Of a stretch of DNA of 64,000 bases, positions 15,791 through 58,037 are shown in pieces. Every line of letters starts with the position of its first letter. Position 1 is the first letter of the stretch. The notes under the pieces were generated by a model. It was not told where the DNA came from. It did not search any database and worked only from the letters and a program-made list of their open reading frames with translations. The position numbers and the translations under genes are program-made. Source of the stretch: Dehalococcoidia bacterium (lineage in GTDB: Bacteria > Chloroflexota > Dehalococcoidia > JAUQQI01); contig DAOTYJ010000029.1 of NCBI GenBank assembly GCA_034434875.1, positions 3,581-67,580 on the forward strand, written 5' to 3'.

Positions 15791-15802
15791 CCCTCTTAAC
15801 GT

Positions 15803-15947
15803 TTAACCCCGAACGTAATATTGTCCGCCGACGTGCCGGACCAGCCCCTTAAGCTCCAGCAGGGCCAGGGTCGCCCCGACCTCGCCCGCCGGCCTTCCGG
15901 CCTGGCGGACGAGGTCGTCGATGTGGGTGGGGCTGTGGTCCAGCAGC
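15803..15947 (-). pseudogene. dprA: dprA C-terminal winged-helix segment, encoded in a different frame from the body
   Basis: Alternate frame reads VKLLDHSPTHIDDLVRQAGRPAGEVGATLALLELKGLVRHVGGQYYVRG, the canonical DprA C-terminal domain. Confidence 0.6.
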
Positions 15948-15951
15948 TTCA

Positions 15952-16905
15952 CTATAATAATTCTAACTCAGTATCCGGGGCCGCCTGGCGCAGGCCGACC
16001 TGGTGGTTGAGCCGGGCAAGCTTTAGGGCCTCGAGGATGTCGTCGGCCCCGGTCACCAGGCCGGCCCCGTCCTGGATGAGGCGGTTGGTTCCCCGGCTCT
16101 GGGGGGAGGTTATCGGGCCGGGGACGGCGAAGACGTCCCGGCCCTGGTCGGCGGCGTACCCTGCGGTGATGAGGGCCCCCGAGGCCTCGTCGGCCTCGAC
16201 GACGACCACCCCGAGGCTGAGGCCGCTGATGATGCGGTTGCGAATGGGGAAGTTCTGGGCGGCCGGCTGGGTGCCGGGCGGAAACTCGGTTATAAGGGCG
16301 CCGGCCTCGGCGATGCGGTCGGCCAGCTGGCGGTTTTCCCAGGGGTAAACCTGGTCTAAGCCCGAGCCCAGGACGGCCAAGGTCCAGCCCCCAGCCTCCA
16401 GGGCCCCCAGGTGGGCCTCGGTGTCGATGCCCACGGCCAGGCCGCTCACGACGGTGACGCCCCCGGCGGCCAGGTCCCGGCTGAGGGCCCGGGCGACCTG
16501 GCGGCCGTAATAGGTCGGGCGGCGGGTGCCCACCACGGCCACGGCCCAGGCCTGGGCCGGGAGGAAGTTACCCTTAACAAAGAGGACGGCCGGCGAGTAG
16601 TCGATGACCCGCAGCCGGTCCGGGTAATCCGGGTCAGCCCAGGTGAGGACCTTGAGGCCGAGGCGGCGGCAGGCTTCCAGGTCGGCCGCCGGATCCCGCC
16701 TGGCCCGGGCCGCAAGCACCCGGTCGACCAGCTCCGGTTCGAGGCCGGCGGCCAGGAGCCCGGCCCTGGGGGCCTTCCAGGCGTCGGCCAGGGCGCCGAA
16801 GTGGGCCTGGAGGCGGCGGATTCGGGCGGCCCCGAGGCCCTGAACCCGGCTGAAGGCGACCCAGCAGGCAAGCTCCCGGTCGTCAATCCCCATCCCGGCC
16901 GACAT
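15952..16905 (-). pseudogene. dprA: DNA processing protein DprA (Smf), main body. It terminates at a TAG inside an AT-rich patch
   Basis: Rossmann-like DprA core …GLSLGVVVVEADEASGALITAGYAADQGRDVFAVPGPITSPQSRGTNRLIQDG…. Confidence 0.85.
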
Positions 16906-16955
16906 TTTACCACAGGAAAGGCCCCGGGCTTTAAGAGCTGCCCGCCGTCAGAACA

Positions 16956-16979
16956 GGGCTTTCCGGCGCCGGAAAGCCC
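16956..16979. promoter_or_regulatory. Perfect 24-bp palindrome GGGCTTTCCGGCGCCGGAAAGCCC in the divergent dprA/mntH intergenic region
   Basis: Seen directly; no downstream T-run on either strand, so an operator is more likely than a terminator. Confidence 0.4.
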
Positions 16980-17103
16980 CGGCGGAAGGCTGGGCGTCCG
17001 GCATGCCGGCCGGTTTTGACACCGCCCCGATTTTGGGTTAAGCTTAGGTCTAGAGTTAAGCAATCTTAAATATGGGCGGCTGCGCCGGAAGGAGCAGGCG
17101 CCC

Positions 17104-18441
17104 GTGGCCGACAACGCCGACCTTCCTAAGCCGGTCCGGCCCTCCCGCTGGTGGGAGCTTCTCGACGATGCCTCCACCCAGGATGTGGTCAGGGCCGTGG
17201 TCCTGGGCCGGGCCCGGTTGCCCCTCTGGAGGCGGTTGCTTGCCTTCCTCGGCCCGGCCTTCGTCGCCTCCGTCGCCTACATGGACCCCGGAAACTTCGC
17301 CACCAACATCTCGGCCGGGGCCCAGTACGGCTACATGCTCCTCTGGGTGGTGGTGATGAGCAACCTGATGGCCATGCTCATCCAGTCCCTCTCGGCCAAA
17401 CTGGGCATCGCCACCGGCCGGAGCCTCCCCGAGCTTATCCGGGACCATTTTCCCCGCCCCCTGGTGCTCTTCCTGTGGGTGGTTGCCGAGCTGGTGGCGA
17501 TGGCCACCGACCTGGCCGAGTTCCTCGGGGCGGCCCTGGGGCTCAACCGGCTTTTCGGCGTCCCGATGTTTCCGGCGGCCCTCATCACCGGCGTCCTCGC
17601 CTTTTTGATATTGAGCCTGGAGCATTACGGTTTCCGGCCCCTCGAGGCCGTCATCACCCTGTTCGTCGGGGTTATCGCCCTCTGCTATTTCGTCGAGGTC
17701 GCCTTCTTTGCCCACCCCGATTGGGGGGAGGTCGGGCTGGCGGTCATCCGGCCGCGGCTTACGGACCCCGAGAGCGTACTGCTGGCCGTCGGGATCCTGG
17801 GGGCCACGGTTATGCCCCACGTTATCTACCTGCACTCGGCCCTGACCCAGGGCCGGGTGGTGGTTCAGGGCGACGCCGCCAAGCGGCTGATTTTTCAATA
17901 CGAGGTGTTGGATGTTATCCTGGCAATGGGAATTGCCGGCCTGATCAACGGGGCGATGCTCATTATGGCGGCGGCGACCTTTCACCCGAGCGGCTACCAC
18001 GAGCTCACGGAGCTTACGGATGCTTACCTGACCCTGCGGCCGCTGCTCGGGCCGCTGGCCGCAACGGTCTTTGCCATCTCCCTCCTGGCTTCGGGCCTCT
18101 CGTCGTCGACGGTGGGTACCATGGCCGGGCAGGTTATCATGCAGGGGTTTCTCCGGCGCCAAATCCCCATCTGGGTGCGCCGGCTGGTTACGATGGTCCC
18201 GGCCATCGCGGTGATCGGGGCCGGGTTTGACCCGACCCGGACCCTGGTCATAAGCCAGGTTGTTTTATCCTTTGGGATTCCCTTCGCCCTGGTCCCCCTC
18301 ATCATCTTCACCCGCCGCCGGGAGCTGATGGGCCCCCTCGTCAACTCCCGCCTGACCACGGTCCTGGTGGGCGTCGTTGCCCTCGTCATCGTCGGCCTTA
18401 ACCTCTTTCTCCTTTACCGCACCCTGACCGAGGGCCTATGA
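17104..18441 (+). CDS. mntH: NRAMP-family Mn2+/Fe2+ transporter
   Basis: TM1 signature AYMDPGNFATNISAGAQYGYMLLWVV plus ~11 TM helices. Confidence 0.9.
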   Translation: MADNADLPKPVRPSRWWELLDDASTQDVVRAVVLGRARLPLWRRLLAFLGPAFVASVAYMDPGNFATNISAGAQYGYMLLWVVVMSNLMAMLIQSLSAKLGIATGRSLPELIRDHFPRPLVLFLWVVAELVAMATDLAEFLGAALGLNRLFGVPMFPAALITGVLAFLILSLEHYGFRPLEAVITLFVGVIALCYFVEVAFFAHPDWGEVGLAVIRPRLTDPESVLLAVGILGATVMPHVIYLHSALTQGRVVVQGDAAKRLIFQYEVLDVILAMGIAGLINGAMLIMAAATFHPSGYHELTELTDAYLTLRPLLGPLAATVFAISLLASGLSSSTVGTMAGQVIMQGFLRRQIPIWVRRLVTMVPAIAVIGAGFDPTRTLVISQVVLSFGIPFALVPLIIFTRRRELMGPLVNSRLTTVLVGVVALVIVGLNLFLLYRTLTEGL

Positions 18442-56374: not shown

Positions 56375-56914
56375 TTACTCTTCGGGTTTAATTAGGAGCA
56401 CCTCGTCGGTCCCGTCCACCTCCTCCAGCCGGACCTGAACCTCCTCCCGGCGGGAAGTGGGGACGTTCTTGCCGACGTAATCGGCCCGGATGGGCAGTTC
56501 CCGGTGGCCCCGGTCGACCAGGACCGCCAGCTGGACCCGGCGGGGGCGGCCGAAGTCCATCAAGGCGTCGAGGGCCGCCCGGACCGTCCGGCCGGTGTAG
56601 AGGACGTCGTCCACCAGGACGACGACCTTGCCGGTGATGTCCACGGGGATGTCGGTCTGCTGAAGGGCGGGCCGCAGGCCCCGCATGGGGAGGTCGTCCC
56701 GGTAGAGGGTAACGTCCAGTTCGCCCACGGGGACCGGGCGGCCCTCGATTTCGCCGAGGATGCGGGCAAGGCGTCGGGCGAGGGGGACGCCCCGGGTGCG
56801 CATGCCGACCAGGACCAGGTCGGCGGTGCCCTGGTTGCGCTCGGCAACCTCGTGGGCGATGCGCGTCAGGGCGCGCCGGATGTCGCTACGGTTAAGTAAA
56901 ACGACTTCGGCCAC
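56375..56914 (-). CDS. pyrR: Bifunctional pyr operon regulator / uracil phosphoribosyltransferase
   Basis: …[20 protein letters not shown]… PRPP-binding motif. Confidence 0.95.
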
Positions 56915-56924
56915 CGGAAACAGA

Positions 56925-57100
56925 CCCTCAAAGTTAGGCTTGGGCCGTCCGGGGCCGGCAGGTGGCGCACAGGCTCAACGGGGGGAGGTCGATTCCGTGC
57001 CCAGCCTTACCAGCCTCGCCGGACTGATTTAAAGGCGGGCCATTCAGCCCACTCAGGCCCCAGTATACCACAGGCCGGGCCGGAAGGCAAATCCGGCCGG
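56925..57100 (-). promoter_or_regulatory. pyr leader containing the PyrR-binding loop AGUCCGGCGAGGCU (anti-antiterminator element)
   Basis: The minus-strand transcript carries UUUAAAUCAGUCCGGCGAGGCUGGUAAGG (plus-strand 57022-57035), matching the ARUCCNGNGAGG consensus. Confidence 0.7.
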
Positions 57101-57109
57101 GCGGCCGGC

Positions 57110-57138
57110 TTGACATCCCGGGGCCGCTTTAATATGAT
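57110..57138 (+). promoter_or_regulatory. Near-consensus sigma-70 promoter TTGACA-N17-TATGAT for the gene at 57192
   Basis: Seen directly; divergent from the pyrR leader. Confidence 0.5.
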
Positions 57139-57191
57139 TAGCTAGCGCCCGCGGCCGAGGGCCGGGCGGAAACCAAAAAGCGGAGGGCAAA

Positions 57192-58029
57192 GTGGTTCAG
57201 GTGCAGCTTGAGAACGAAAAGTGGGACCTCACCAATTTTGCCAACAAGGGGCGGCTTCTTGATACGGTCCGGGCCGAGGCCGAAACTTTCTTCGGCCTGT
57301 GGTGGACCCCCGAGTACTGGGAAAACCCCACCGCCTCAGGCCACTGGCAGGTCCGGGACCTGGTCGGCCACATGGTGGATGTCATCGAGGGCTACCTGGA
57401 GCGGTTCGACCTGGCCCGGCGGGGGCAGGAAGCCCCGCCCCCCCTACGGCCTTAAGGTGATGGCCAGCCGCCTCGACGAGCGGGCCCGGGCCTTCCGGAC
57501 CACGCCCCGGGAGGAGCTCCTGGCCCGGCTTCGCCGGGACTATGACACCTTGATGGGGATCTTCGAGGGCTTAACCGAGGCCGAGTGGACCGGACTTATG
57601 GTCTCCCACCCGTATATGGGGCCCGTGCCGGCCTGCTGTTACCCGATATTCTAGAATAATTACAGCGTGCACAAATGGGATATCCGGGAGCGGCTGGGGG
57701 TGCCCCACGGCCTCTCGCCCGACGCGGCCGACTTTCTGGTGCCGTGGATGTTCGTCCTCTGGCAGGCCACCGCGGACCTGGAGCGGGTCGGGCCGGAGCC
57801 CATCCGGGTGGGCTTCAGCGTCTCGGGCCGAAACGGCGGGACCTGGCGGGTCCAGGTGGACCGGGAAGGCTCCAAGTATGAGCGGGGGCCCATCGACGAC
57901 CTGCCGACGGTCTTCGAGTTCGACCCGGCCAGCCTGGTCCTCACCGCTTTCGGCCGGATTCGGGCGGGAACCGCCTACGGCGACCAGGGCATGGCCCAGC
58001 GCTACCGGGAGATCTTTTTCTCGATTTAA
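57192..58029 (+). pseudogene. DinB_2 / mycothiol-maleylpyruvate-isomerase N-terminal-like (TIGR03083-type) protein, disrupted
   Basis: …SGHWQVRDLVGHMVDVIEGYLERF… and …SVHKWDIRERLGVP… His-containing motifs. Frameshift in a C7 run at 57438-57444 and an in-frame TAG at 57652-57654 within the AT-rich patch TTCTAGAATAATTACAG. Confidence 0.6.
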
Positions 58030-58037
58030 AGGGGAGG

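Follow-up and report, generated by a model that had tools for sequence, protein, structure and literature searches.

Nine disrupted genes in a 64-kb window of an uncultured Chloroflexota genome: probable lineage-specific pseudogenes of several ages

The Window and Its Broken Genes

The stretch of DNA considered here (the window) is 64 kb of contig DAOTYJ010000029.1 from a Dehalococcoidia bacterium of the phylum Chloroflexota, and its subject is a set of nine recognisable genes that carry disabling lesions. Choice of open reading frames (ORFs) guided by GC content at third codon positions (GC3), combined with seven Pfam scans, delineated 55 genes and 61.1 kb of coding DNA in the window, at a GC content of 69% overall and 64-75% along the length; no tRNA genes and no Rfam-recognisable RNAs were detected in it. 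Nine of the 55 genes are broken, which amounts to 16% of the genes and 18% of the coding DNA, and together they carry 16 disabling lesions. GC3 frame plots alone are too noisy for calling frameshifts at 64-75% GC, and orthologue-guided tblastn was used; each lesion was placed by alignment to intact orthologues or solved structures, down to the nucleotide level. The broken genes are as follows.

15803-16905, minus strand: dprA, a pseudogene or truncated gene, with a +2 (TA) insertion in the AT-rich patch 15947-15969
21712-23387, minus strand: fused double-domain ABC permease of the NitT/TauT type, with an 8-bp tandem duplication at 22931-22946
24435-25401, minus strand: rhomboid protease pseudogene, with two -1 frameshifts, one nonsense substitution and a 15-nt in-frame deletion
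25431-27515, plus strand: GDE-type glycosidase (GDE_N_bis/MGH1-like glycoside hydrolase) pseudogene, with four frameshifts and a 6-nt in-frame deletion
28843-30460, plus strand: family-5 solute-binding protein (SBP5), with a single +T at about 29698
34340-34737, plus strand: small conserved hypothetical protein of about 131 aa, with a frameshift at a G7 run (34521-34527)
34804-36044, plus strand: PRC, MgtE_N and CBS-pair protein, a homologue of the MgtE cytoplasmic domain, with a -1 in GCCGGGGGCTAATG (35638-35654)
36062-37348, plus strand: NrmT-type gene (Nramp-related Mg2+ transporter), with two in-frame TAGs
57192-58029, plus strand: TIGR03083/maleylpyruvate-isomerase-family (DinB-like) pseudogene, with a frameshift, a nonsense substitution and a 3-nt deletion

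Among the window's ORFs, the Pfam scans placed complementary halves of single domains in neighbouring frames, and a full-length alignment to an intact orthologue or structure was obtained for all nine broken genes. An earlier note, made from the letters of the sequence alone, had listed nine broken genes alongside intact long neighbours; all nine proved recognisable and disrupted where that reader had placed them, and the Pfam scans bear out that carB, topA and the 4.3-kb membrane gene (DUF2298) are intact. Seven of the nine fall in one variable stretch of 14 kb (21.7-37.3 kb). The lesions comprise slippage in short homopolymers, small tandem duplications, four nonsense substitutions and small in-frame deletions, and their homopolymer settings are G7, C7 (twice), G5 (three times) and T4. 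The same note's homopolymer indels stand for G7, C7 and G5; its T7 run reflects an in-frame deletion that shifts no frame, and the T4 is seen in the window only.

The Lesions Gene by Gene

In dprA, the DNA_processg_A core is complete (2-211 of 212) within a 317-aa ORF, and the DprA_WH domain (20-61 of 61) lies out of frame with it at 15806-15949. When the two frames are joined, residues 13-361 align in one stretch with the full-length DprA of R. palustris (3maj), and because this simple concatenation aligns without interruption, the lesion is read as a +2 (TA) insertion. This is the sole broken gene without an intact orthologue, its lesion being established through Pfam and the solved structure. 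The permease is divided into two BPD_transp_1 fragments by two copies of CTAAATTT on the coding strand. Its intact orthologues in L082 and P0415, of 566-578 aa, read ..RLNFYLRF.. or ..RLNGWLRF.. through the lesion site, and the closest of them, P0415, has the same ..RLNFYLRF.. as the repaired window sequence.

More heavily damaged are the adjacent rhomboid and glycosidase genes. Of the rhomboid domain, a fragment (3-73 of 143) is recognised by Pfam in the window, and intact 331-aa orthologues match the window by tblastn in three frames plus a stop. Nucleotide alignment resolves these breaks as a -1 at a C7 run (25018-25032), a TGG>TAG substitution at 24881-24883 and a -1 near 24850; the in-frame TAG of this gene is the one at 24881-24883, and that at 24898 is merely an out-of-frame terminator. 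The glycosidase, for which intact 695-aa orthologues were found in L002 and L082, carries a +T (T4) at 25460, a +1 near 26080, a -1 in a G run near 26345 and a -1 near 27349, and its 6-nt in-frame deletion, at about 27330, leaves a T7 run. At 25460, two other assemblies (L001 and L090) have T3 where the window has T4.

The SBP_bac_5 domain is split into 1-184 and 195-364 by the extra T of the SBP5 gene, which stands in the context CAG-T-AAAGTAAAC, makes an immediate TAA and is missing in L087 and L002. For the small hypothetical gene, the fused 131-aa reconstruction matches the 132-aa P0361 in one stretch over 3-128, and about 40 further proteins match it across the junction.

Immediately downstream, two broken genes form a functional pair. 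MgtE_N and CBS lie in different frames in the MgtE cytoplasmic-domain gene, where the -1 at 35640 falls inside a conserved AGG-L-MT motif and yields an overlapping TAATG stop/start. With one Leu added, the reconstruction aligns without gaps over 172-396 with the MgtE of T. thermophilus (2yvy, ..AGGLMT..), and the gene is a single uninterrupted ORF in all five distant metagenome loci, L093-L097. The NrmT-type gene that it adjoins has its Nramp domain split into 8-190 and 203-356; its TAG at 36212-36214 stands at a position that is Gln in the closest homologues and that at 36770-36772 at an invariant Glu, and the gene is uninterrupted in L093-L095. In the alignment, the reconstruction and its homologues carry DAGG and TTIT, fitting the NRMT motif, in which helix 1 bears DxxG and helix 6 TxxA/T in place of DPGN and AxxM (PMC8806188).

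Such a pair is a known system: NrmT with an adjoining homologue of the MgtE N-terminal cytoplasmic domain was described by Shin et al. 2014 (PMC4072509), and the window has the same two-gene order, an MgtE_N-CBS protein followed by the Nramp-like gene, which is repeated in L093-L095 and L097. The binding-site motifs DxxG (DAGG) and TxxT (TTIT) agree with those of EleNRMT/NrmT. Unlike the known module, however, the window's transporter has two premature TAGs and its partner a frameshift as well as some 170 aa of additional PRC-like sequence at its N terminus, and no M-box or other riboswitch upstream of the module gave an Rfam match in the window. The PRC-bearing form of about 415 aa, followed after about 80-90 nt by NrmT, is kept in distant, soil-type metagenome contigs among L093-L097.

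The last broken gene, the DinB-like one, stands apart from the others. Its reconstruction is 94% identical over the full length to the intact 279-aa P0001, with P0418 also close, and comparison with the DNA of the relative L085 identifies C6>C7 at 57438, CAG>TAG at 57652-57654 with an adjacent T>A, and the 3-nt deletion. A 14-nt pattern, TAGAATWATTAYAG, is common to 15952-15965 (minus strand) in dprA and 57652-57665 (plus strand) in the DinB-like gene, and was considered as an inserted AT-rich motif or mobile footprint. That idea was rejected: the intact relative already has the native, AT-rich CAGATTATGGATTAC at the DinB-like site, and the pattern had been derived post hoc from those two sites. 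The resemblance looks like coincidence.

Replication of the Lesions across Assemblies

Much of the window is represented in other assemblies. The MEGAHIT-style contig ERZ27245891:k141_184315 (80.8 kb) shares 99.98% identity with it over 17.5-38.6 kb, rising to 100% over 48.6-64 kb, and the SPAdes contig NODE_300 of ERZ650669, from a different sample (75 kb, coverage 16), is 99.986% identical over 3667-25791. From ERZ650669 also comes NODE_968, which is 99.99-100% identical over 27375-50838, and a Logan contig matches 57389-62208 at 100% identity. Of the 16 lesions, 15 are repeated base for base in MEGAHIT, SPAdes (another sample) and/or Logan assemblies, the T4 at 25460 being the exception. 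Lesions left of 25.8 kb, that of dprA included, are identical in NODE_300, and those at 27.4-50.8 kb, including those of SBP5 and NrmT, are identical in NODE_968, where the hypothetical gene differs from the window by one single-nucleotide polymorphism at 34496. The DinB-like lesions are identical in k141_184315 and the Logan contig.

Outside the broken genes, indels respect the reading frame. In a comparison with L085 (90.6% identity, 16.5 kb aligned), all indels within intact genes are multiples of 3 or form a compensated -1/+1 pair, and the sole uncompensated frameshifting intragenic indel is that of the DinB-like gene.

These comparisons bear on the possibility, raised in the earlier note, that indels in homopolymers and AT-rich contexts and miscalls from error-prone long-read data had produced the lesions. 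Many of them do lie in homopolymers (the G7, C7, G5 and T4 runs above), and the T4 at 25460 may be an error or a rare variant. The contigs, however, are short-read products of MEGAHIT and SPAdes, 15 of 16 lesions agree between assemblers and between samples, the long housekeeping genes are all free of lesions and the indels of intact genes stay in frame. Nor could errors yield the lineage-specific divergence of about 13-15% in the rhomboid and glycosidase genes, with its spread over codon positions (see below). An origin in sequencing or assembly is therefore very improbable, and the long-read version of it fails. Because the lesions are replicated across assemblies, placed non-randomly, set among indels that elsewhere stay in frame and accompanied by codon-position signatures, they are a property of the genome and not sequencing noise.

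It is also conceivable that the tracts belong to phase-variable contingency genes, toggled reversibly within the population. The T3/T4 polymorphism between assemblies at the start of the glycosidase gene would fit such switching, as would two single-lesion genes with a G7 (the hypothetical) or a G run (the MgtE cytoplasmic-domain gene). The tracts, however, are short (7 nt or less), no assembly departs from their G7, C7 and G5 states, and most of the affected genes hold further, irreversible lesions; the glycosidase itself is dead regardless of its T3/T4 site, through three other frameshifts. We regard phase variation as extremely improbable.

In-Frame TAG Codons

The in-frame nonsense codons of the broken genes are four TAGs, with neither TGA nor TAA among them. 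This could point to recoding, in which the TAGs are read through by a suppressor or pyrrolysine-like tRNA, or the frameshifts are programmed, so that the genes remain functional. As in known cases of TAG reassignment or suppression, several TAGs lie at conserved positions of otherwise alignable genes; the lesions of NrmT are TAGs only; and the TAATG overlap in the split MgtE cytoplasmic-domain gene could permit coupled translation of its halves.

In high-GC genomes such as this one, at 69% GC, TGA is usually the dominant terminator. The 46 intact genes of the window end in TAG (20), TGA (17) or TAA (9), however, which makes TAG the commonest genuine terminator, and it is also conserved as such: the TAG of the glyoxalase gene aligns with TAA in L085, and the TAG stops of the citryl-CoA-lyase-like and DUF2298 genes are conserved as stops. 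At all four in-frame sites, relatives have ordinary sense codons, namely Trp (TGG), Gln (CAG), GAG-type Glu and Gln (CAG). TAG is the expected nonsense product where CAG, GAG and TGG codons abound. In addition, two of the three TAG-bearing genes hold frameshifts too, and no tRNA gene lies in the window. As for programmed frameshifting, the orthologues examined all read through the corresponding site as one in-frame ORF, and there is thus no conserved slippery site. The window therefore differs from systems with reassigned TAG in its main true terminator, in the sense codons of relatives and in the co-occurring frameshifts, and because of the first two of these features we exclude recoding, which is barely credible here. 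The earlier note had dismissed readthrough, correctly, on the grounds that TAG also serves as a normal terminator. Its description of the TAGs as products of transitions applies to those of the rhomboid (Trp), NrmT (Gln) and DinB-like genes; the second TAG of NrmT replaces an invariant Glu by a G>T transversion.

Placement of the Lesions and Signatures of Selection

Were 16 lesions distributed at random over the coding DNA, 13.3 genes would be expected to carry them; the observed number is nine, and the probability of nine or fewer is 0.004. Likewise, six intact genes are at least 2 kb long, and the probability that all of them would escape a lesion is 0.006.

Independent information on selection comes from the codon positions (1/2/3) of lineage-specific substitutions in the window and in relatives, a comparison that took in the rhomboid, glycosidase, SBP5 and permease genes, for which relatives' DNA was at hand. 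In the rhomboid gene, the substitutions specific to the window number 48/48/50 and those of the relatives 41/21/95 (p=6e-6), and in the glycosidase gene the corresponding counts are 63/59/122 and 48/51/155 (p=0.015), with positions 1 and 2 accounting for a fraction of 0.50 in the window vs 0.39. In both genes the rate is doubled. By contrast, the SBP5 substitutions (21/8/71) retain a strongly purifying pattern, and the permease likewise has a constrained pattern with no signal of relaxed selection. Relaxation is evident for the rhomboid and glycosidase genes and not for SBP5 or the permease, as fits very recent lesions in the latter two.

Intact Copies, Deletions and Lesions in Relatives

The relatives, which come from free-living community metagenomes, generally keep intact versions of the broken genes. 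In L002 (Chloroflexota metagenome-assembled genome QQ.bins.59, the nearest species-representative), the rhomboid (331 aa), glycosidase (695 aa) and SBP5 (603 aa) genes are intact. Across L002, L082/L092 and L087, the rhomboid, the glycosidase and SBP5 or the permease are intact, with the exception of frame breaks at the extreme 3' end of the L087 glycosidase. These take the form of two single-base gaps at 5919-6050 of L087, a Logan contig, at the same site as the window's frameshift and the NODE_968 junction described below; they may mark a hotspot at this point or be noise in the Logan assembly.

For the left half of the window, the closest relative is L091 (GCA_034432015.1, DAOUCL010000051.1), at 90.4% nucleotide identity. 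Its permease is intact, and in its segment 3294-4468, which corresponds to window 24526-28624, the equivalent of 24526-27172 is gone, that is, the rhomboid gene and most of the glycosidase gene. The glucose dehydrogenase of L091 survives only as a decayed, multi-frame remnant, with a phage-type integrase about 1.1 kb from it. Elsewhere, at places where the window is intact or offers no comparison, the AI-2E transporter is frameshifted in L082 (281-1353) and L086 (4589-5604), and at 18666-19914 of L085 two overlapping ORFs are called for a PALP-domain gene, which is apparently split. Because relatives show deletions and lesions of their own there, the region is a zone of continuing accessory-gene turnover across the clade.

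A further kind of change is suggested by NODE_968, the contig behind the labels L082, L084 and L092. Over at least 23 kb, from 27375 to at least 50838, it is the near-identical match to the window described above, and left of 27375 it is only 65-83% identical. Its left part has 94-98% protein identity to L087 and the L087 gene order beyond MntH, and carries intact rhomboid, glycosidase and permease genes. The switch occurs at about 10 nt of shared sequence, GGCGCCCGGC, inside the 3' end of the glycosidase gene. The contig comes from the same sample (ERZ650669) as NODE_300, which has the window genotype. It may have arisen by recent recombination between lineages or be a chimera; the overlap of about 10 nt is too short for a k-mer-graph chimera, and a true recombinant between lineages about 20% divergent appears plausible from the sequences. 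Use of NODE_968 as a sister strain, by which the left-hand lesions might be dated, was set aside, since the contig is a mosaic of an L087-type left and a window-type right; it can serve as an intact outgroup only. Because this same-sample contig joins an L087-type flank to at least 23 kb of window-identical DNA, one may imagine a free-living, high-GC population in an intense wave of inactivation (more than 10% pseudogenes genome-wide), whose decayed segments are deleted or swapped through homologous recombination among co-resident lineages about 20% apart. We offer this as speculation of low probability.

Intact Genes and Other Features of the Window

The remaining genes of the window are intact. 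They include the SF1 helicase, two glycosyltransferases, PMT_2 membrane proteins, GGT, EF-P, Xaa-Pro peptidase, aroQ and topA; MntH, Usp, the AI-2E transporter, an ABC ATPase, TatA and DUF421; and glucose dehydrogenase, enoyl-CoA hydratase, UbiA, TetR and ArsR. Also intact are the terminase and portal pair, a Wzz-type kinase, IndA, LytR and a PD40 protein, the complete pyrimidine cluster (pyrD, pyrK, carB, carA, pyrC, pyrB and pyrR), and the glyoxalase, the citryl-CoA-lyase-like protein and the 1433-aa DUF2298 protein. The DUF2298 gene differs from that of L085 by a -1 and a +1 six bases apart, at 61774 and 61780, which compensate each other and leave the 1433-aa gene intact.

Two other segments of the variable region and its surroundings deserve mention. 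At 33177-34340, between the ArsR/TetR pair and the frameshifted hypothetical gene, lies about 1.1 kb of lower-GC and largely non-coding DNA whose sole genes are two tiny ones (DUF3309, 52 aa; Transgly_assoc, 111 aa). Intact genes for a terminase large subunit (458 aa) and an SPP1-type portal (438 aa) lie at 37419-40838; two small ORFs precede them, and no capsid, protease or tail genes follow, the next gene being the Wzz-type kinase. The pair is identical in NODE_968 and is probably a prophage remnant.

Interpretation and Significance

Given the demonstrated lesions, their replication in other assemblies, the intact orthologues in relatives and the selection signatures, the nine genes are best read as genuine unitary pseudogenes that ordinary mutation has produced, in a single uncultured Chloroflexota lineage of 69% GC, from dispensable accessory genes under lapsed selection; we put the probability of this reading at roughly 0.88. 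Loss of function, with relaxed selection as its cause, we infer from the sequences. Under such a course of events, purifying selection on dispensable accessory genes would lapse, and slippage, small duplications, nonsense substitutions and small in-frame deletions would then disable them. The rhomboid and glycosidase genes would be old, with three or four disabling lesions each, a doubled rate and substitutions less bound to codon position, and NrmT and the DinB-like gene, with two lesions each, would be of intermediate age. One lesion each is found in dprA, the permease, SBP5, the hypothetical and the MgtE cytoplasmic-domain gene, and these may be recent, because those that can be assessed (the permease and SBP5) are still under purifying constraint. 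The expected end point would be deletion, as in the closest relative, L091, for the rhomboid and most of the glycosidase. Functional modules have been struck together, namely the MgtE cytoplasmic-domain gene with NrmT, and the adjacent rhomboid and glycosidase genes.

Several observations weigh against this reading for part of the set. Both other assemblies covering 25460 lack the T4, which is present in the window's source alone and is the sole lesion that may be an assembly error or a rare variant. The truncated DprA keeps the region that forms the entire 288-aa DprA of S. pneumoniae, and the 317-aa protein may still be functional. Similarly, a naturally split MgtE cytoplasmic-domain gene exists in C. 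acetobutylicum (PMC4072509), and by analogy the split gene of the window, with its TAATG overlap, may still function. None of the five single-lesion genes gives evidence of its own for relaxed selection. Where a G7 or C7 run is the site of a single lesion, the evidence is at the level of assemblies, and a systematic artefact common to assemblers is conceivable; moreover, the assemblies may not be wholly independent of one another, and the Logan run could underlie one of those from ENA.

A broader explanation would be genome-wide reductive evolution, through host restriction or streamlining, with the window typical of a genome containing more than 10-15% pseudogenes. The local density is certainly high (nine of 55 genes, 18% of the coding DNA), lesions occur in relatives too (AI-2E in L082 and L086, PALP in L085, glucose dehydrogenase and the deletion in L091), and the orphan terminase-portal pair suggests a decayed prophage. 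Against this, the sample is 64 kb only, GC remains 69% (64-75% throughout) with no drift towards AT, no transposase or insertion sequence (IS) is present among the Pfam-scanned ORFs of the window, and the biosynthetic and housekeeping genes are intact; with seven of the nine broken genes in one 14-kb stretch, the window may also be unrepresentative. We consider genome-wide reduction unlikely, and neither it nor streamlining or host association can be concluded from 64 kb.

Measured against known systems, the window's broken genes, read as unitary pseudogenes, resemble those of other bacteria in being recognisable homologues that slippage in homopolymers, small duplications and nonsense codons have disabled, and in that the older ones have several lesions and faster, codon-position-independent substitution, with a deletion in a sister lineage. 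Their density, at 16% of genes, exceeds the few per cent that are usual in free-living bacteria. Classic reductive genomes, such as that of Mycobacterium leprae, have a higher density together with IS expansion and AT drift, which the window is without. The phenomenon is classic, lineage-specific bacterial pseudogenisation at several ages, and the pair is the known NrmT module.

For the organism, the fragments are real features, which public protein collections list as separate 'proteins' (for example 384-, 185- and 87-aa clusters). The earlier note's suggestion of an ongoing loss of accessory transporters and catabolic genes is upheld, in that the lesions are genuine and lineage-specific, intact copies persist in relatives and the closest of these has lost the rhomboid and most of the glycosidase by deletion. 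The lineage would be losing a NitT/TauT-type ABC importer, an orphan peptide/oligosaccharide-binding protein and an NrmT Mg2+ uptake module, and also a debranching-type glycosidase, a rhomboid protease and a DinB-like enzyme; close relatives retain them, as would be expected of ordinary niche-specific loss. The window thereby presents a graded series, from the single fresh lesion through the multi-lesion neutral relic to deletion in a sister, and serves as a worked example of this process rather than as a discovery.

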